Positions 5,300 to 17,543 of a DNA stretch of 64,000 nt are shown in pieces. The notes below the pieces were generated by a model, which had not been told where the DNA came from, made no database searches, and was given only the letters and a program-made list of their open reading frames with translations. Made by a program: the position numbers and the translations under genes. Source of the DNA: Patescibacteria group bacterium (lineage in GTDB: Bacteria > Patescibacteriota > Patescibacteriia > Magasanikbacterales > GWA2-37-8); contig JBAZKA010000002.1 of NCBI GenBank assembly GCA_041651015.1, positions 6,163 through 70,162 on the forward strand, given 5' to 3'. How positions within the stretch are numbered: the stretch's first letter is position 1; each line of letters starts with the position of its first letter.

Positions 5300-5560
5300 G
5301 CTGAATGAGCCGCGCTTACAGCGTTGTCGTCTCGTCGCTTCGCGACGTCGCCGAACAACGCTTATACAAAATGTCCGTCGCCCGCTTGCGCGGCTCCGGC
5401 CACATTGTATAAGCGCGGCTCGTTATATGAAATACATGTTTTCCTTTTGGGCTTCGCCCAGCTCTTAAAAAGAATTCAATTTTGTTTTTTTATTAATTAA
5501 TGAGGGGGAATAAGGTGTTTTTTCCGCTGTCGCTACAAAAACGATTTATTTATAAGGGGA
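5300..5560 (+). repeat. island repeat copy 1 (long hairpin gagccgcgcttaca...tgtataagcgcggctc + conserved core gttatatgaNatacatgttttcc...gctcttaaaaagaat...)
   Basis: core about 70-80% identical to 13197-13320 and to the reverse complement of 15955-16090. Confidence 0.7.
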
Positions 5561-5599: not shown

Positions 5600-7408
5600 A
5601 TGCCAAAAATTAAGGATATACCAAAAATTGATCGCCCAAGAGAAAGGTTTCTGAAAAAAGGAGCTGACGCACTTTCAAAAAGTGATCTTTTGGCAATTCT
5701 TTTAGGTAGTGGAATTAAGGGGAAAAATGTTAGACAACTTTCTGAAAGTATTATTAAAAAATTTGGTAAAAACTTTTTGAACATAACCGTTGATGATCTT
5801 TTAGAAATTTCAGGGATTGGACAAGCAAAAGCCCTCCAAATAGCGTCCGCAATATCATTAGTAAAAAGATTTTACGACGAAAACAAAACTAATGAAATCG
5901 TTATAAAAAATTCTCAAGATGTTTTATCCCTTACTTACGATTTAAGAGATAAGAAAAAAGAACATTTAGTTTGCCTTTATTTAAACGCACGAAATACTTT
6001 ACTAAAAAAAGAAATTGTCAGTATCGGTCTTTTAGATAAGGCATTACTGCATCCGAGAGAAATTTTTTATCCTGCAACCGAATTAAACGCCGCCAGCGTT
6101 ATTTTGGTTCACAATCACCCTTCGGGCGATTCTTCACCAAGCGAAAAAGACAACCAAATCATTGAAAAAATCGTACAAGCTGGTGAAATAATGGGAATAC
6201 CAGTTGTTGATTTCATTATCATTTCTGAAAATAATCATTACAGTTTCTACGAAAAATTAAATAAGCAAAAAGCAAGCGTTGATTATGTTGCAGACGGAAT
6301 ACAAGGCACACTTTTTGCCGTACTTGAAGTTGAAAAACCCGCCTACGAGGTAACGGCTATACAAAAAATTGATAAACCCTATTTCCACTTTTCAAAAACT
6401 CAAAATGATACCTTCCAATTGCAGAATAGAAGATATTTGGGCAATAAATACAAACTGCTCGGATTTATTGAAGATATTGTTGCTGAAAAATGCAACGGAA
6501 TAAAATCATTTTGTGATATTTTTGCGGGTACAGGTGTTGTCGGAGAAAGATTTAATAAGCCAGAAATAAAAATTATTTCGAATGACTTCCTTTTTACAAA
6601 TTATGTTTGCCTAAAAGCGTTCCTTGGTACAAATTCACCTATTCAGAAAATTGCAGATAAAATTGATATTCTCAATAGTTTAAAAACTGATCGAGATAAT
6701 TATTTTTCAAAATACTTTGGTAATACCTATTTTTCGCTAGAAAATGCTAGAAAGATTGGAGCAATCCGTGAAGAAATAGAAAAAATGGCCGAAACGGAAG
6801 AAGAAAAAAAAATTCTCATTTGTTCCTTAATTTATGCAGTTGATAAGGTTGCAAATACAGTCGGACATTATGACGCTTTTCGTAAAGATTTAGATATGCT
6901 ACAGCCATTAAAACTTTTGGCTCCCGATATTGACTACTTAAATAATGGAAATAACGAAATTTACAAAGAAGACGCAAACATCTTGATTAGAAAAATTGCT
7001 TGCGACGTTTTGTACATAGATCCGCCCTATAACTCGCGCCAATATTCAGATGCCTATCATTTACTGGAAAATTTAGCTGAATGGAAAAAACCTAATGTTG
7101 AAGGAATGGCAAAAAAAATGGACCGCTCTCACATAAAAAGTTCCTATTGTCTTAAAAATGCTACACAAGCATTTGAGGACTTGATTAAAAATGCTAATTG
7201 TAAACATATATTATTGTCTTATAATAACACTAGGGATTCAAAGGATGGACGTTCAAATGCCAGAATAAACGATAATGATATTTTACGGATATTAAAAAAT
7301 AAAGGTGAAGTAGAAATTTTTGAAAGAGATTACAAGGCCTTCACTGCTGGAAAAAGCAACGGCGACGGAAACGTCGAAAGAATTTTTTATTGTAATATAA
7401 CAAAATAA
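5600..7408 (+). CDS. fusion protein: N-terminal RadC-like JAB/MPN domain + C-terminal Dam-like (D12, alpha-class) N6-adenine DNA methyltransferase
   Basis: 602 aa. N-terminal half has helix-hairpin-helix and the RadC HNHPSG(x)SPS(x)D motif. C-terminal half has RYLGNKYKLL, FxGxG (DIFAGTGVVG) and DPPYNSRQY in Dam-family order. Confidence 0.75.
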   Translation: MPKIKDIPKIDRPRERFLKKGADALSKSDLLAILLGSGIKGKNVRQLSESIIKKFGKNFLNITVDDLLEISGIGQAKALQIASAISLVKRFYDENKTNEIVIKNSQDVLSLTYDLRDKKKEHLVCLYLNARNTLLKKEIVSIGLLDKALLHPREIFYPATELNAASVILVHNHPSGDSSPSEKDNQIIEKIVQAGEIMGIPVVDFIIISENNHYSFYEKLNKQKASVDYVADGIQGTLFAVLEVEKPAYEVTAIQKIDKPYFHFSKTQNDTFQLQNRRYLGNKYKLLGFIEDIVAEKCNGIKSFCDIFAGTGVVGERFNKPEIKIISNDFLFTNYVCLKAFLGTNSPIQKIADKIDILNSLKTDRDNYFSKYFGNTYFSLENARKIGAIREEIEKMAETEEEKKILICSLIYAVDKVANTVGHYDAFRKDLDMLQPLKLLAPDIDYLNNGNNEIYKEDANILIRKIACDVLYIDPPYNSRQYSDAYHLLENLAEWKKPNVEGMAKKMDRSHIKSSYCLKNATQAFEDLIKNANCKHILLSYNNTRDSKDGRSNARINDNDILRILKNKGEVEIFERDYKAFTAGKSNGDGNVERIFYCNITK

Positions 7409-7410
7409 CT

Positions 7411-9228
7411 ATGAAAAAACCTTGGTCAATTACTACAACACTAAGAAATCCCGAAAGATTGAGAGATTTTTTAATTGTTTTAAGACAACTTGAAAATTGC
7501 AAGTGGGATTTAGAAAGTCAGAAAAAATATCAAATTCTTTTGATAAAAGAGAGGGTTTACGGCTATGGAAGCAATCAATTTTACAATGGATTATCTCAAA
7601 AACAAATTGATTTAATTGACGATCAAACAAAAACAATTACCTTTGAACAAGCCGAAACGATTTTTAATGCTAAAAACTACGAAGATCCTTCAACGAGAGG
7701 GCGGCAATCAATAAATCCTCTTAAAAAATTCGGACTCGCTGTTATTAAAGACGAAAAAATCTGTATAACCAGCTTAGGAAAACTATTTTTAAAAGACGAT
7801 TTTGATCTTGGTGAAATATTTTTTAGAAGTTTTATTAAGTGGCAAATCCCAAATCCTGATAGCGATGACTATAAACTTGAAGATGGATACAATATAGAAC
7901 CATTTGTCGGCGTGCTTCATCTTATTCGGGAAGTAAATGAAAAATCTAGAAAATCAGGAGAAAAAGAAAAAGGAATAAGCAAGGAAGAATTTTCCTTATT
8001 TTGTCCAACCCTTGTTGATTATGAAGATATAGAGCTTTATTCTGAAAAAATTATTGCCCTACGGAAAAAACTTAAAGACAAAACGAAGCAAGAACAAAAA
8101 ACAATCCGCGACAAATATAAAAAAACTTTCGCACGGGAATTTCTTGGAAAATCAAATACTACAGAAATTCAAAAACTCTTAAAAAATCTCAAAGACTACG
8201 GAGATAACGCTATCAGATACTTCCGCCTAACTCGCTATATTTATATACGGGGTGGTGGTTTTTATATTGATCTGGAGCCGAGAAGATCAGTTGAAATCAA
8301 TGCTTTGTTGGATTTTGATAATGCTAAGTCGAAGACCTTTGAGACAAAAGAAAAATACTTAGACTATATTTCTGACATCTCGGAGCCAAAACTACCGTGG
8401 GAAACTAAAGAAAAGCTTACTGAAATTGCCATAAAATTACTTGAAGAAATAAAGTTGTTTGAACGAGAAACAAGGGTAACACCAAAAGTATTTTTGGATT
8501 ATCAAAAATTGGATGGAGATGGATTAAAAAAATTTATCAATGAACTGCGAAACTACCGAAGAGAGCTGCAGGACAAACAAAATCACCAAAAATCACAAGA
8601 TACGGAACAAATTAAATCCTACATTCAAGAACTTGAAAATATTTTTGAATCTGAAGATCGGCCAATACTGCTTGAAAAGTTGTCATCGCTAGGTCTGAAT
8701 GCCCTAAACGATGCATTAAAAATACAACCAAACTATCCAGTTGGTGATGATAACGAGCCAACATTTACGGCACCGGCAAACACGCCAGATATAGAGTGTT
8801 TTTATCAAGGTTTTAATGCTATCTGTGAGGTAACAATGCTAACGGGAAGAGATCAATGGTACAACGAGGGGCAACCAGTGATGAGACATTTAAGAGATTT
8901 TGAGAATAAACATAGCGATAAAACTACATATTGCTTGTTTATTGCTCCCCAAATGCACAGAGATACTATAAACACCTTTTGGACAGCCATAAAATACGAA
9001 TACGAGGGCAACAAACAAAGAATAATCCCTTTATCAATAAACAATTTCGTGTCTCTTTTAAAAATACTCGTACAAATAAAAACCGAGAATAAATTTTTAA
9101 AGCACAGCGAAATTGCTCGCCTATACGATGAAATAATTAATTCATCAAATTCTTTTAGCGATTCCGATGGTTGGCTTAGAAATATTCCCACCGCCATTTC
9201 GTCATGGCAAGAAAGCCTAAATTTTTAA
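7411..9228 (+). CDS. putative Type IIS restriction endonuclease, AlwI-family-like
   Basis: 605 aa. N-terminal W-x-I-T-T-x-R-N-P-E-R pattern recalled from RE_AlwI-family proteins. Located 2 bp after one methyltransferase and overlapping the next. Family assignment is from memory, not a search. Confidence 0.5.
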   Translation: MKKPWSITTTLRNPERLRDFLIVLRQLENCKWDLESQKKYQILLIKERVYGYGSNQFYNGLSQKQIDLIDDQTKTITFEQAETIFNAKNYEDPSTRGRQSINPLKKFGLAVIKDEKICITSLGKLFLKDDFDLGEIFFRSFIKWQIPNPDSDDYKLEDGYNIEPFVGVLHLIREVNEKSRKSGEKEKGISKEEFSLFCPTLVDYEDIELYSEKIIALRKKLKDKTKQEQKTIRDKYKKTFAREFLGKSNTTEIQKLLKNLKDYGDNAIRYFRLTRYIYIRGGGFYIDLEPRRSVEINALLDFDNAKSKTFETKEKYLDYISDISEPKLPWETKEKLTEIAIKLLEEIKLFERETRVTPKVFLDYQKLDGDGLKKFINELRNYRRELQDKQNHQKSQDTEQIKSYIQELENIFESEDRPILLEKLSSLGLNALNDALKIQPNYPVGDDNEPTFTAPANTPDIECFYQGFNAICEVTMLTGRDQWYNEGQPVMRHLRDFENKHSDKTTYCLFIAPQMHRDTINTFWTAIKYEYEGNKQRIIPLSINNFVSLLKILVQIKTENKFLKHSEIARLYDEIINSSNSFSDSDGWLRNIPTAISSWQESLNF

Positions 9229-9230
9229 AT

Positions 9231-10007
9231 ATGGGTATGAAAAAAAATATTATCTACAACGACGATTGCATAAACATACTTAACACGAAGATTGATAAGA
9301 GTTCTATTGATCTTGTCTTTGCCGACCCTCCGTACAATTTATCTGGCAATGGTCTAAAATGGCAGGGCAGCAAAACTGGTGGAGATTGGTATATGGTGAA
9401 TGAGCATTGGGACAAAATGACTGCCCCTGAATATCTACAATTTACCAGAAAATGGATCGGGGCTTGCCATAAAATTTTAAAAGACACAGGATCAATTTAT
9501 ATTGCATGTAGTTACCACAATATCGGTGAGGTAATGATTGTTTTGAAACAATTAGATTTCAAGATAAATAATATTATTACTTGGTACAAAACAAACGCCA
9601 TGCCGAATATGACAAGGAGGGTGTTTACTCACGCAACAGAATTTGTAATTTGGGCTGTTAAAGGTAGTGGATGGACTTTTAATTATAAAGATCTTAAAGA
9701 AATAAACCCTGAAAAACAAAAAGACGGAACCGAAAAACAAATGCGTGATTTTTGGGAATTACCCTTAGTTCAAGGCAAGGAAAGAATACGCGGAAAAGAC
9801 GGCAAAGCGTTACATCCAACTCAAAAACCAGAAGAAATGTTAAAAAGAATCATTTTAGCCAGTTCCAATGAAGGCGATACTGTTTTAGATCCATTTTTAG
9901 GAAGCGGGACAACTGCCGTTGTGGCTAAAAAATATGGTCGCAAGTGGATTGGGATTGAAAAAGAAAAGCAATATTTTAAGATTGCTGAAGAGCGAATAAA
10001 AAAATAA
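9231..10007 (+). CDS. beta-class N4-cytosine/N6-adenine DNA methyltransferase
   Basis: DPPY (FADPPYN) N-terminal and FxGxG (DPFLGSGTT) C-terminal, which is the beta-class order; ATG 9231 chosen to avoid overlap with upstream stop at 9228. Confidence 0.8.
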   Translation: MGMKKNIIYNDDCINILNTKIDKSSIDLVFADPPYNLSGNGLKWQGSKTGGDWYMVNEHWDKMTAPEYLQFTRKWIGACHKILKDTGSIYIACSYHNIGEVMIVLKQLDFKINNIITWYKTNAMPNMTRRVFTHATEFVIWAVKGSGWTFNYKDLKEINPEKQKDGTEKQMRDFWELPLVQGKERIRGKDGKALHPTQKPEEMLKRIILASSNEGDTVLDPFLGSGTTAVVAKKYGRKWIGIEKEKQYFKIAEERIKK

Positions 10008-12959: not shown

Positions 12960-13330
12960 AAGAAATAAGGAGTTTTGAATTTTGGGCATTCACCCCTGAC
13001 CCCTCTGCCCAAAATCCAAAACGGAAAAAGAAATTTTAAAATTTTTTAAAACAATTCCGACTGCTGTCGGAAAAAAGAAAAGGAATACATCAGCTAACAA
13101 CGAGTATCCGGTTACGGCTTTCCCCGAAAGCCTCCACCCAAATTTTTCTTTCGCTTCGCTTCAGAAAAACTTCGGATACTCGTAACGTTATATGACATAC
13201 ATGTTTTCCGTTGGGGCTGCCGCCCCGCTCTTAAAAAGAATCCGATTTCGTTTTTTGGTGATTGAGCGAGGGGAAATATAGTGTTTTCTTCGCTACGCTA
13301 CGAAAACCGAATTATTTAATAAAAAATATT
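12960..13330 (+). repeat. island repeat copy 2 (inverted partial core 12960-13030, hairpin aacgagtatccg...cggatactcgt 13088-13197, direct core 13197-13320)
   Basis: aligned by eye to copies 1 and 3. Confidence 0.7.
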
Positions 13331-14137
13331 ATGGCTGACAACTACTACGTTTACGTCTACATTGATCCTCGGAATTACGAGGAATTTTACTATGGAAAAG
13401 GCAAGGGCAACAGAAAAGTAGCGCACCTATATGATGAAAAAGACACAGAAAAAACTAAAATTATAAAAGCCATTCAAAAAGAGGGGCTTGAACCTATAAT
13501 TAAAGTGGTTGCAAAAGGATTATCAGAAAGTGATGCATTTTTAATCGAAAAAACTTTAATTTGGAAACTTGGAAAAAATTTATCAAATATTTCATCGGGT
13601 CATTTTTCAGATAAATTCAGGCCACATAATAGTTACCACCTTAATCTGAATAGTTTTGATTTTGCAAACGGAATTTTTTATGTAAATGTTGGCGAAGGCG
13701 AAACTCGGGCATGGAGAGATTGCCAAAATTTTGGCTTCTTGGCGGCTGGGCAAGGCACAAAGTGGAGCGAACCACTAAAAACATTGAATATCGGTGATAT
13801 TGTCGTGGCATACTTAAAACGAAAGGGATATGTCGGAATTGGTAGGGTAGTCGAAAAAGCCAAGCGGGTACTGGATTTTAAATTTGACGGAAAATCGCTA
13901 AAAACCCAAACTTTAGACAGCACCGATCTCTTTAAAAATTCAGATAATGAGAATACAGAATTTTTGGTCAAAATCGATTGGATTAAAAGCGTGCCGACAA
14001 ATGAAGCGAAGTGGAAAAATAATTCGGGACTATTTACAACACAATTAATTAAGGCATCACTTGAAAACCAGGTAAAAACAATTAATTTTTTAGAAAAAGA
14101 ATTCCATGTTAATTTTACGGACATAATGAACGATTGA
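13331..14137 (+). CDS. GIY-YIG nuclease fused to PUA-like (EVE-type) domain; putative modification-dependent endonuclease
   Basis: N-terminal YVYVYIDP...FYYGKGKGNRK is a GIY-YIG-type motif. C-terminal W-RDCQNFGFL...IGDIVVAYL...GYVGIGRVV resembles the EVE/PUA beta-barrel pattern. Start moved from 13262 to ATG 13331. Confidence 0.55.
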   Translation: MADNYYVYVYIDPRNYEEFYYGKGKGNRKVAHLYDEKDTEKTKIIKAIQKEGLEPIIKVVAKGLSESDAFLIEKTLIWKLGKNLSNISSGHFSDKFRPHNSYHLNLNSFDFANGIFYVNVGEGETRAWRDCQNFGFLAAGQGTKWSEPLKTLNIGDIVVAYLKRKGYVGIGRVVEKAKRVLDFKFDGKSLKTQTLDSTDLFKNSDNENTEFLVKIDWIKSVPTNEAKWKNNSGLFTTQLIKASLENQVKTINFLEKEFHVNFTDIMND

Positions 14138-14265
14138 TATATTTTATAAAATTATTAATTCCGCTAATTTTCAATTCATACTCAAATATACATATTAGTA
14201 AATTTGATTATTGGATTAATTGAAGCCCTTGTTGATAACTTTTTGTTAATAGTATAAAAATGGCT

Positions 14266-14290
14266 AATTTTAGCCATTTTTATAACTACT
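14266..14290. promoter_or_regulatory. palindromic operator-like site AAAAATGGCTAAttttTTAGCCATTTT
   Basis: near-perfect inverted repeat directly upstream of the -35; related GGCTAA..TTAGCC motifs at 15894-15917, 27680-27695 and 27807-27829. Confidence 0.45.
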
Positions 14291-14299
14291 TGACATAAT

Positions 14300-14329
14300 C
14301 AAAAAAATCATTTATAATATCATTATTCC
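14300..14329 (+). promoter_or_regulatory. near-consensus sigma70 promoter (TTGACA-18-TATAAT)
   Basis: TTGACA 14300-14305, TATAAT 14324-14329, about 40 bp upstream of ATG 14371. Confidence 0.6.
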
Positions 14330-14370: not shown

Positions 14371-15096
14371 ATGAATCAAGAAAATAAACAAATAACTCCA
14401 CCATATTTGAGCATGGCAAAACTTGCCAAATTAGTTGAAATCGTGAAATCAAGAAACATGACCCAGGTTAATCCTACTCATTTTATCACTCAAGGATTCA
14501 GTCAGGCAGATGCATACGTTGCAATAAACTCATTGCGCTTCCTGGGTCTAGTAGATGACAACAATAATACCACCGATTTATTTCGTAAATTTCAATTAGT
14601 AGGAGAACAGGGCAAAAAAGGCATGGAGGAAGTAATAAAATCTGCATACTCTAAATTATTTGAATCATTCGCTAATGGGAATCCATACGATGAAGGAAAT
14701 GAAGATAATTTAATAAATGATTTCATGATTCAATATGCTATATCAAAAAGAATCGCGGGACCAGCATCAAAAGCATTTGTTTGGTTGTGCGAACAAGCTG
14801 GACTCAGAGAACAATCCATAAAAATACAAGAAAGAAAAATCCGTGTTACATCAACAAAAAAATTGGCAGATAAAAGTAACAACAAAAACAAACCGCAAGC
14901 TGACACAAAAAATGAAAATCCTACTGGAGTAGCTCTCACTCTTAATGGTGGTATTATCATATCAATACCAACAACGGACATAAGAACATCACAAGCAATT
15001 GCATTGGGCGAACTTAAAAGCGCCGTCGAGGAACTTAATAAGTTTGCATTAAAATATATTGTGGAAACCGAAACTAAAAATAATGATGCTGTATAG
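14371..15096 (+). CDS. hypothetical protein (helical N-terminal domain, Lys/Asn-rich linker, small C-terminal domain)
   Basis: 241 aa with no catalytic motif recognised; first gene of promoter-driven pair. Confidence 0.55.
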   Translation: MNQENKQITPPYLSMAKLAKLVEIVKSRNMTQVNPTHFITQGFSQADAYVAINSLRFLGLVDDNNNTTDLFRKFQLVGEQGKKGMEEVIKSAYSKLFESFANGNPYDEGNEDNLINDFMIQYAISKRIAGPASKAFVWLCEQAGLREQSIKIQERKIRVTSTKKLADKSNNKNKPQADTKNENPTGVALTLNGGIIISIPTTDIRTSQAIALGELKSAVEELNKFALKYIVETETKNNDAV

Positions 15097-15111
15097 CAAA
15101 CTTACCATACT

Positions 15112-15732
15112 ATGAATATCTATCTTGACGAATCATACAATCTCCAAAAAAATAAAGGGAAAATGTTTATAAGCATCAACGGGTTTGCTGTCCTTGATGA
15201 TAAAGTACTCCGCAAACGCTGGAAAATCGTTCGAAAGGATTATTTAAAAATGAAACGACGTATTCACGCGACTGATTCACGCTTTGAGGATCTCCGTGGA
15301 AAAAGTATAAAAATGCTTGGACGTCACGATGTAAATATTCTTTCGATATTCCAACTGACGCAAGAAATATCTCATGACTACTTTGATACAAATGGCATAA
15401 GATTTGATACCGTGTACACTTCTCTTCTTAAAAAACTATTCACTGATTTATCTCTTGGTGAATACAAGCAAGCACGCATAGTTATGGACGCGAGAAAGCA
15501 TAAAGGCGGGATACTTGGGGAAATCATTTTCCAAAAAACTATCGAGGGATTTCTTTCTGATAAATTCCCTTCAACACGCTGTGTGTTAAAACTTACGCCA
15601 TCCTACGCAGACATTCTGATTGAACTTGCAGACTTTGTGTCCAACACATTTTACAAAGAATATCAGCAAGATTCGGAACACATATTCAAGAAACTTGGAT
15701 TTCGGTTGATACAAATCAAAAACCCGCTATAA
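15112..15732 (+). CDS. DUF3800-like protein
   Basis: 206 aa. N-terminal MNIYLDESYN matches the conserved N-terminal D-E motif recalled for DUF3800; sits 15 bp after the upstream gene. Confidence 0.55.
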   Translation: MNIYLDESYNLQKNKGKMFISINGFAVLDDKVLRKRWKIVRKDYLKMKRRIHATDSRFEDLRGKSIKMLGRHDVNILSIFQLTQEISHDYFDTNGIRFDTVYTSLLKKLFTDLSLGEYKQARIVMDARKHKGGILGEIIFQKTIEGFLSDKFPSTRCVLKLTPSYADILIELADFVSNTFYKEYQQDSEHIFKKLGFRLIQIKNPL

Positions 15733-15949: not shown

Positions 15950-16165
15950 GGCCGCCGGGCATTCACCCCTTTTGTTCCCCTCTGCCCTGCGCCCAAAAGC
16001 GACAAAAAACGAAATCGGATTCTTTTTAAGAGCCATTTGAATTGACGAAATAACGGAAAACATGTACATCATATAACAGCGTGTATGCGGCTACGGTTCC
16101 CCTATCGGCGAACCTCCGCCCATATCGCTAAGGCGACATCGCATACACGCGAACGTTGTACGAAA
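15950..16165 (-). repeat. island repeat copy 3 (inverted orientation; core 15955-16090, hairpin cgcgtgtatgcg...cgcatacacgc 16090-16160)
   Basis: reverse complement aligns with copies 1 and 2 (gttatatgatgtacatgttttccgtt...gctcttaaaaagaatccgatttcgtttttt). Confidence 0.7.
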
Positions 16166-16715
16166 TAAATTATTTACTAGCCCCACCAGCATTGAAGGGA
16201 GGTAACAATGAAATGGTGGCGAAAAGTGGTAGAAATCTATCACAACATGTTCAATGTGAAGTTCGCTGTCCTTTCGGCCGCCTTTAATGGTCTGGTCGCA
16301 ATGATGGTGAACATGGCACACAGCCCCGAGCAGTACCTGATGGCAGGACTTGCACAGGCGGCCTCAAGCTTCCTGTCAACCGGAGTCACGGCAAGAGTGG
16401 TTCAACACTTTTCGCCCATTCGGTCCGCGCCAGTCTCGTACTTCTTCGGAAGCTTGGTGCCTGCAACCATGACGTTTGTGATGAGCTTGGCAGTTCACCT
16501 TTGGAACAACACTCCAGAGGTTCTGGCAAGTTGTGTGGCTCCGACGGTCATCAGCTACACGACCAGCTACATCACAAACTACATCACCCGGCGTGGCTAC
16601 ATGCTGCCCGGAAACTACAAGGAGGTGCAAAAATGATCCCGCGTCAGCCTCCGAACAGGACTGACGCGGGACACTCACTCAATGAATGTGGGGCTAGTAA
16701 ATAATTTAGCCGATA
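16166..16715 (+). mobile_element. 550-bp unit bounded by perfect 19-bp inverted repeats (AAATTATTTACTAGCCCCA / TGGGGCTAGTAAATAATTT) carrying one GC-rich ORF
   Basis: IRs at 16166-16184 and 16697-16715; interior GC content clearly higher than flanks; 11-bp-stem hairpin after the ORF. Confidence 0.5.
16208..16636 (+). CDS. hypothetical hydrophobic protein (GC-rich, probably foreign)
   Basis: 142 aa; strong SD GGGAGGT 6 nt upstream of ATG; several hydrophobic segments. Confidence 0.5.
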   Translation: MKWWRKVVEIYHNMFNVKFAVLSAAFNGLVAMMVNMAHSPEQYLMAGLAQAASSFLSTGVTARVVQHFSPIRSAPVSYFFGSLVPATMTFVMSLAVHLWNNTPEVLASCVAPTVISYTTSYITNYITRRGYMLPGNYKEVQK

Positions 16716-16864
16716 TGCGGTTCAAGAAAAAAGTATAAATATTTTCAGCGGATATTTTTTTCTCTCACCCATATTTCGCACACATCTAAATAATATGGAA
16801 TGTGCGAAACATCGCATATCGGCATACGTTATCTGAAATTAAATTTCTGGACTATAATAAAATT

Positions 16865-17443: not shown

Positions 17444-17543
17444 CATCAGATAACACGCGATATCCAAAATTCGCCTTCGCTTCGCTACGGAAAACATCGC
17501 ATACACGCGTACGTTATTGTAAAATTAGTTTAATTCAAACCAT

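Follow-up and report, generated by a model that had tools for sequence, protein, structure and literature searches.

A stand-alone GIY-YIG nuclease with a PUA-like C-terminal domain in a Patescibacteria defence island, a candidate single-chain modification-dependent restriction enzyme

Introduction

What is the function of a gene whose product joins a GIY-YIG nuclease to a second domain that matches no Pfam or NCBIfam model and has no solved relative detectable by sequence? The question is raised by a gene at positions 13331-14137 (+ strand) of a 64,000-nucleotide stretch of DNA from a Patescibacteria group bacterium (GenBank assembly GCA_041651015.1, contig JBAZKA010000002.1, positions 6,163 to 70,162 of the forward strand; GTDB Magasanikbacterales, GWA2-37-8), referred to here, over its whole length, as the window. 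A preliminary description made from the sequence had proposed a candidate modification-dependent restriction enzyme. The computational analysis reported here supports that proposal through the domain anatomy, the intact catalytic residues, the absence of a conserved partner gene and the partner repertoire of the C-terminal module. The gene stands alone in a defence island, and its product has two domains, namely a nuclease that is homologous to that of the type IV enzyme CMoRE and retains its catalytic residues, and a predicted sensor with a PUA-like fold. It is likely that the product is a modification-dependent (type IV) restriction endonuclease made of a single polypeptide.

The gene and its product

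The open reading frame, read from both the open reading frame list and the sequence, runs on the + strand from an ATG at 13331 to a TGA at 14135-14137. A longer frame initiated by TTG at 13262 in the mechanical open reading frame list is unsupported; the homologues begin M-x(1-6)-YYVYVYIDPRN, and the ATG at 13331 is therefore taken as the start. An antisense frame at 13678-14124 was disregarded because the + strand frame has more than 1800 homologues (1818 protein clusters at E <= 0.001, of which the best 120 are 63-100% identical at full length). The product is 100% identical to the entry 'GIY-YIG nuclease family protein [Patescibacteria group bacterium]', encoded on a 241 kb contig of a metagenome-assembled genome. 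Its features are listed below, where AF2 denotes AlphaFold2.

13331..14137, + strand: complete coding sequence, GIY-YIG nuclease fused to an EVE-like (PUA-superfamily) domain, 268 aa plus stop
13340..13618, + strand: GIY-YIG nuclease domain (Pfam PF22945, PADLOC PD-T4-3, PDB 9u75, BLASTP, hhalign)
13346..13354, + strand: Y6-V7-Y8, the 'GIYxY' tyrosines, equivalent to CMoRE Y17 and Y19 (alignments; invariant)
13388..13426, + strand: Y20-Y21-G22 ('YIG') and predicted catalytic R28 and H32, aligned with CMoRE Y31, G33, R39 and H43
13547..13549, + strand: E73, predicted catalytic (metal-binding) glutamate, invariant in 44/44, aligned with CMoRE E94
13586..13588, + strand: N86, conserved GIY-YIG asparagine, invariant, aligned with CMoRE N106
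13589..13660, + strand: inter-domain linker, residues 87-110, predicted disordered, sequence strongly conserved
13661..14134, + strand: C-terminal PUA-like (EVE/YTH-like) domain, residues 111-268, predicted modified-base sensor (AF2, Foldseek, PDC-S11)
13712..13714, + strand: W128, candidate wall of a base-binding pocket, invariant in all fusion contexts, its place in the pocket proposed
13979..13981, + strand: W217, second invariant sensor tryptophan, putative pocket role by analogy with VcaM4I W82/Y130

The N-terminal half is a CMoRE-type GIY-YIG nuclease

The nuclease half of the protein spans residues 1-96. The GIY-YIG core that had been read from the motif YVYVYIDP...FYYGKGKGNRK lies at residues 6-29, and matches in Pfam, PADLOC and the PDB agree with that reading. 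Pfam LEM-3_GIY-YIG (PF22945) matches residues 19-96 (39.4 bits against a cut-off of 27, E = 7.8e-10), and the PADLOC model PD-T4-3 matches residues 4-100 (E = 4.9e-14), through positions 15-118 only of its 256. CMoRE/PD-T4-3 is an experimentally demonstrated type IV endonuclease that binds and cuts DNA containing 5-hydroxymethylcytosine (5hmC) or glucosyl-5hmC (PMC12923530). A sequence search of the PDB returned the CMoRE entries 9U75 and 9U7U as the sole significant solved relatives (E = 2.4e-8), and the best PDB matches of the full-length AF2 model in Foldseek were likewise CMoRE structures (9u75, 9u7z and 9u7u, E = 9e-9 to 2e-7).

Residues were compared with a CMoRE set made up of a full-length E. 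coli homologue (locus L086, 1501-2307), reached via a copy disrupted by an insertion sequence (IS) and a collection of E. coli genomes, together with 105 family members. BLASTP against the E. coli homologue gave 38% identity over 103 aa, confined to the N-terminal domain, and hhalign of the N-terminal domain profiles of the two families gave a probability of 99.4% (E = 3.8e-21). Y6, Y8, Y20, G22, R28, H32, E73 and N86 are invariant in all 44 family members aligned, and they pair with CMoRE Y17, Y19, Y31, G33, R39, H43, E94 and N106, which are invariant in 106/106 CMoRE sequences. The preliminary description had made its proposal depend on the catalytic Arg and Glu, and both (R28 and E73) are in place in these 44 members. 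The motifs, the catalytic Arg, Glu and Asn, and the alpha/beta fold of the AF2 model are those of the GIY-YIG superfamily. Separately, an enterobacterial CMoRE/PD-T4-3 copy at locus L085 (2001-3606) is cut to 161 aa by an IS insertion carrying rve and HTH_Tnp_1 genes.

The C-terminal half adopts a predicted PUA-like fold

The motif W-RDCQN-FGFL...IGDIVVAYL..GYVGIGRVV, from which a PUA-like barrel had been proposed, was located at residues 128-174, and the extent of the domain, previously given as residues 150-269, is corrected to approximately 111-268 by the full-length and isolated-domain models. When the domain was modelled alone by AF2 with 48 diverse homologues, the predicted local distance difference test score (pLDDT) was 96.5 and the predicted template modelling score 0.90. 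Foldseek against the PDB then bore out the proposed fold, returning PUA-like structures for all of the best 50 matches (probability 0.93-1.00, E from 2.6e-4). The top match was VcaM4I, an EVE-HNH enzyme that senses 5-methylcytosine (5mC) and 5hmC and holds a W82/Y130 sandwich (PMC7897488); PH1033, MJECL36, PSPTO5229, PpR72, THYN1 with 5mC DNA, many YTH domains, ASCH domains and the DISARM protein DrmA were also among the matches. Identical families ranked after the CMoRE structures when the full-length model was searched, and a search of viral folds in BFVD with the C-terminal domain gave only weak PUA-like or ASCH-type matches.

Conservation within the domain points to a small group of residues. 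W128 and W217 are invariant both in the 48 diverse domains and in 55 fusions of the same domain to partners other than GIY-YIG, and N119, R126, Y161 and E210 are almost invariant across the two sets. By analogy with the VcaM4I W82/Y130 sandwich, we infer that W128, W217 and Y161 may form a shared ligand pocket of a similar kind.

The linker is conserved and the acidic lid of CMoRE is replaced

Linker residues 87-110 have pLDDT values below 50 in the full-length AF2 model, in which the C-terminal half is confident. Eight of them (G90, F96, R97, P98, H103, L106, F109 and D110) are nevertheless invariant. This conservation despite predicted disorder suggests a functional role, for example in DNA contact, docking or autoinhibition. 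In 'most' CMoREs a negatively charged autoinhibitory loop (alpha2-alpha3) carries four consecutive acidic residues (PMC12923530). Where CMoRE has this acidic lid (…VDDDDELL…), the protein has the loop YDEKDTEK, shorter by about 9 residues as judged by the BLASTP gap; set against EVAAVDDDDELLSNK in the E. coli CMoRE homologue, it contains acidic residues with no run of four. Together, the conserved, apparently unstructured linker and the lost lid suggest that the nuclease may be restrained differently from that of CMoRE.

The sensor domain is a shuffled module

The C-terminal domain is not confined to GIY-YIG proteins. The PADLOC model PDC-S11 matches residues 113-260 with E = 1.3e-36, through its positions 206-356 of 358, whereas a true PDC-S11 protein (P0205) matches positions 1-355; our protein lacks any match to the N-terminal NucS-like part of the profile. 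An exhaustive search, run with residues 108-268, found the module in 822 cluster representatives. Among the best 150 of these, 29 have a GIY-YIG N-terminal domain and the others stand alone or are fused differently. Pfam identified TIR (5), NucS_C (4), Schlafen AlbA_2 (3), KAP NTPase (2) and PLDc_2 (2) among the 55 non-GIY fusions, together with PDDEXK_4, GmrSD, AAA_5, HSDR_N, protein kinase and AbrB-like domains. At least eight effector types are joined to the module (GIY-YIG, NucS-like, PLD, GmrSD, TIR, KAP NTPase, Schlafen and ADP-ribosylglycohydrolase). On domain matches, this repertoire resembles that reported for EVE in defence systems (PMC7641849), and the nuclease and defence-effector partners fit a type IV enzyme.

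The ADP-ribosylglycohydrolase association takes two forms. One GIY-YIG/EVE-like protein (P0156) carries an ADP-ribosylglycohydrolase domain (PF03747) fused to its C-terminus. In 3 of 80 loci (L012, 8821-10443; L028, ~8862-9941; L035, ~8922-9935) a gene of this type directly follows the homologue on its downstream side, and in L090 (2145-3092) one lies 3 kb away.

Homologues are widespread, patchy and without a constant partner

The family is large and unusually conserved, with more than 1800 protein clusters and full-length homologues in 207 species representatives, distributed patchily across phyla at 52-86% identity. The range runs from Patescibacteria (candidate phyla radiation, CPR), Bacteroidota, Proteobacteria (Gammaproteobacteria), Planctomycetota, Chloroflexota and Acidobacteriota to the DPANN archaea (Woese- and Nanoarchaeota), a spread in keeping with a defence gene that moves horizontally. 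In 50,697 phage records the N-terminal domain alone found matches and no full-length copy was seen.

No neighbouring protein family occurs in more than 4 of 80 loci from species representatives, and the gene therefore appears self-sufficient. Genes near annotated homologues include AbiEii, AbiC, type I and type IIG restriction-modification (R-M) systems, integrases and prophage genes. Methylases of the N6-methyladenine (m6A) type, Eco57I- or MmeI-like, are present at loci L087 and L089, and L089 also has a C5 methylase with Eco47II. With separate sensor and nuclease domains, a linker that is flexible in the model and no obligatory partner gene, the protein has the make-up of a single-chain type IV enzyme.

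Proposed mechanism and alternative explanations

We propose that the EVE/YTH-like PUA-fold domain would recognise phage DNA by taking a flipped-out non-canonical base into an aromatic pocket that is conserved, for which W128, W217 and Y161 are the candidate residues. The bound sensor would tether the CMoRE-type GIY-YIG domain, which would cut nearby DNA with a divalent metal by means of Y6, Y8, Y20, R28, H32, E73 and N86. The enzyme probably works as a dimer or tetramer and requires a pair of modified sites. Host DNA, which lacks the mark, would be spared, so that no cognate methyltransferase or partner gene would be required. Base flipping, DNA rather than RNA as the target, the oligomeric state and cleavage at a distance are all drawn by analogy from CMoRE and VcaM4I.

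We likewise infer the nature of the mark. Since hosts that carry the gene encode m6A methylases, and once an m5C methylase, close by, plain m6A or m5C is disfavoured and context-free recognition of either seems unlikely. Our best guess is a 5-substituted or hypermodified pyrimidine of the phage type, such as 5hmC, glucosyl-hmC or another hypermodification. The C-terminal domain may also be a distinct, unannotated clade of PUA-like sensors that reads a mark outside 5mC, 5hmC and N6-methyladenine (6mA), an idea that arises because ADP-ribosylglycohydrolase recurs fused or adjacent to the family and m6A and m5C methylases co-reside with it. The ADP-ribosylglycohydrolase link is weak but recurrent and may be a clue to the mark that is read; in that case a sugar-bearing or ADP-ribose-type DNA adduct, or some other phage hypermodification, might be the ligand. 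We regard a separate clade with such a specificity as rather doubtful.

Several observations weigh against a type IV enzyme built in this way. EVE and YTH domains are also able to bind RNA. The likeness of the C-terminal domain to EVE and YTH structures is at the level of fold only (template modelling score, TM, 0.4-0.6; root mean square deviation 5-9 Å; Foldseek E ~1e-4 to 1e-3), and because a profile of the 48 diverse C-terminal domains gave no meaningful match to PDB sequences, the relationship is one of fold and not of sequence. The preliminary description had named an EVE-type reader; the PUA-like part of that claim stands, but Pfam EVE (PF01878) does not match this protein even at E <= 1, so EVE is not singled out, and on the models the assignment is to the PUA-like superfamily, not to EVE over YTH or ASCH. 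Sub-threshold EVE matches do occur among relatives, in 5 of the 48 domains (best E = 3.1e-4) and in the multidomain proteins P0124, P0147 and P0149 (E ~5e-3). The replacement of the DDDD autoinhibitory loop of CMoRE by the shorter YDEKDTEK loop, as read from the alignment, would call for another restraint on self-DNA cleavage. PDC-S11 is itself only a candidate defence system, and several homologue loci have ordinary housekeeping neighbours.

The same module might serve to set off the nuclease and not to tether it, as its fusion to the abortive-infection effectors TIR and KAP NTPase suggests. The EVE-like domain would then sense a phage cue (a modified nucleotide, DNA or RNA) and the GIY-YIG domain would degrade DNA generally, that of the host included, in an abortive infection; the CMoRE sensor does bind free 5hm-dCTP in crystals (PMC12923530). 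Yet CMoRE, whose nuclease is the nearest relative to have been characterised, defends directly, with no trans activation by modified DNA or 5hm-dCTP (PMC12923530), and those two-domain proteins joining a PUA-like sensor to a nuclease that have been characterised work in cis (PMC6765204, PMC7897488). We therefore hold an indiscriminate effector to be improbable. Nor do we give much credence to a C-terminal domain that recognises modified RNA, single-stranded DNA, damaged bases or a structure, in which case the nuclease would be linked to repair or to RNA, or would serve in defence but respond to another trigger. Such a target would accord with the first description of EVE, YTH, PUA and ASCH domains as RNA binders (PMC6765204), with the naming of the Pfam family after the repair nuclease LEM-3, with the OGG-type glycosylase, RNase HII or photolyase-type gene found near some homologues, and with the few fused or adjacent ADP-ribosylglycohydrolases. 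It accords poorly with a gene that is patchy and horizontally spread rather than core, that lies inside a low-GC defence island in this window, and whose sensor module is partnered elsewhere with type IV restriction machinery (GmrSD, the AAA_5 ATPase domain, PLD and PD-(D/E)XK nucleases).

A selfish origin was also considered, in which the gene would be a free-standing GIY-YIG homing endonuclease and the C-terminal domain a sequence-specific DNA binder. The N-terminal domain does resemble jumbo-phage GIY-YIG genes at 36-42% identity, some of them annotated as homing nucleases, and the gene stands by itself, has repeats on either side in this window and is closely similar in phyla that are far apart. 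The phage records, however, hold the N-terminal domain and not the full-length gene; the C-terminal domain is PUA-like rather than NUMOD, zinc-finger or helix-turn-helix and also occurs in defence proteins of the TIR, KAP and nuclease kinds; the repeat beside the gene is not carried along with it; and the insertion sites in the 80 loci share no common target gene. A homing endonuclease is thus very improbable, and a modification-dependent restriction endonuclease is the reading that we favour.

A modified-base reader in the second half gives a concrete, testable function to a family that databases label only 'GIY-YIG nuclease' or 'hypothetical', and one modular picture joins the CMoRE nuclease, the candidate system PDC-S11 and the TIR, KAP and nuclease fusions. 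Should its specificity differ from that of CMoRE, the enzyme could be a further reagent for mapping DNA modifications and would point to the kinds of modified phage that attack CPR and other uncultured lineages. If the sensor clade reads a new mark, restriction by the GIY-YIG fusion would have a specificity that is itself new, and the enzyme would again be a potential mapping reagent.

The gene lies in a repeat-bounded defence island

The gene is held in a low-GC block of approximately 5.4-16.1 kb (30-38% GC against 43-51% outside), which contains a RadC-Dam-type methylase fusion, an AlwI-like endonuclease, an N6/N4 methylase, DUF4297 with HerA, the GIY-YIG gene, and DUF5343 and DUF3800 genes. 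Its place is between the DUF4297-HerA genes and the DUF5343/DUF3800 pair. The gene had been said to stand alone, and this agrees with a repeat copy upstream at 13187-13294 and a perfect sigma-70 consensus (TTGACA-17-TATAAT) at 14290-14318 ahead of the next gene.

A repeat of ~110 nt occurs in three copies, at 5422-5528 (+), 13187-13294 (+) and 16003-16077 (-). The outer copies are mutually inverted and sit at the edges of the low-GC defence block, and copies 2 and 3, which match perfectly over 31 nt in inverted orientation, flank the last three genes (the GIY-YIG gene, DUF5343 and DUF3800). No transposase or integrase was found inside the repeat-bounded block, nor any Rfam family in the flanks or the repeat. 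The repeat could be a cassette boundary mark or a carrier of a promoter or leader. We rejected it as part of the mobile unit of the gene because it is absent from 86/86 fetched loci, the 80 homologue loci included. The region 13085-13300 (+), which includes repeat copy 2, folds far better than shuffled controls (minimum free energy -63.5 kcal/mol, z = -3.85), with a long outer stem (~13100-13111 / 13172-13183) around smaller hairpins.

Other parts of the island were noted in passing. A type II R-M-like module at 5600-10007 begins with a 602-aa protein in which a RadC-like JAB domain and UPF0758_N are fused to a D12-class (Dam-type) adenine methylase, and continues with an AlwI-family endonuclease (605 aa) and an N6/N4 methylase (267 aa). 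The DUF5343 (PDC-M34A-like) and DUF3800 genes at 14371-15732 follow the sigma-70 consensus, just upstream of which is an AT-rich palindrome, AAAATGGCTAA/TTAGCCATTTT (region 14258-14318); these two genes probably make up a candidate defence unit of their own. Another family of direct repeats, 40 nt long (AAACATCGCATA…ACGTTAT…), has copies at 16134-16173, 16807-16846 and 17492-17531, at a spacing of ~680 nt, upstream of small genes that adjoin the island.

Comparison with known systems

The protein differs from homing endonucleases of the I-TevI type in its PUA-like C-terminal domain and in having no full-length copy among the 50,697 phage records. In the winged-helix-GIY-YIG type IV enzymes that depend on m6A (PMC11037411), a GIY-YIG nuclease and a modification sensor also share one polypeptide; there the sensor is a winged helix for 6mA and not PUA-like. 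VcaM4I and TspA15I (PDB 6YEX; PMC7897488, PMC6765204) likewise place a PUA-superfamily sensor and a nuclease in one chain with no methylase partner. Their nuclease, however, is HNH rather than GIY-YIG, and the sensor is N-terminal in VcaM4I and C-terminal here; the two sensors are related at fold level only (11-12% identity, TM 0.47-0.52).

In PDC-S11, an architecture also present on Klebsiella plasmids, the C-terminal domain is clearly homologous to ours, and the true member P0205 carries the same module, whereas the N-terminal nuclease is of the NucS_C type (DUF91/NucS-like, PD-(D/E)XK) and not GIY-YIG. Fusions of EVE with GIY-YIG were catalogued by Bell, Wolf and Koonin in 2020 and predicted, from computation only, to be type IV enzymes (PMC7641849). 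Our protein shares the predicted architecture and predicted role of that class, with a sensor that Pfam EVE misses; it is an uncharacterised member of a class, the EVE-like/GIY-YIG type IV enzymes, whose existence had been predicted before, and current views are not overturned because the architecture was predicted in 2020.

The closest comparison is with CMoRE, which has been described from E. coli and Klebsiella with structures 9U75, 9U7U, 9U7Z and 9U8D in a tetrameric assembly, and in which a flexible linker joins an N-terminal GIY-YIG domain to the sensing domain at the C-terminus (PMC12923530). The position of the CMoRE cut relative to the mark is CN11/N9G. Mutagenesis showed the role of the GIYxY tyrosines, and the authors regard the 'GIYxY-YIG' signature as distinctive (PMC12923530). 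The nuclease domains are homologous and both contain the triple tyrosine of GIYxY-YIG together with the R, H, E and N residues. The sensors, in contrast, are unrelated in sequence: hhalign of the C-terminal domain profiles gave 0.6-1.4%, and at this profile level we rejected the idea that the CMoRE sensor is a diverged form of the domain; moreover, 9u75 is not among the 50 best fold matches of the C-terminal domain. Because its sensor domain and acidic loop are not those of CMoRE, the protein is, as judged from sequence, not a full member of the CMoRE family and shares its nuclease. It almost certainly shares the logic of CMoRE as well.

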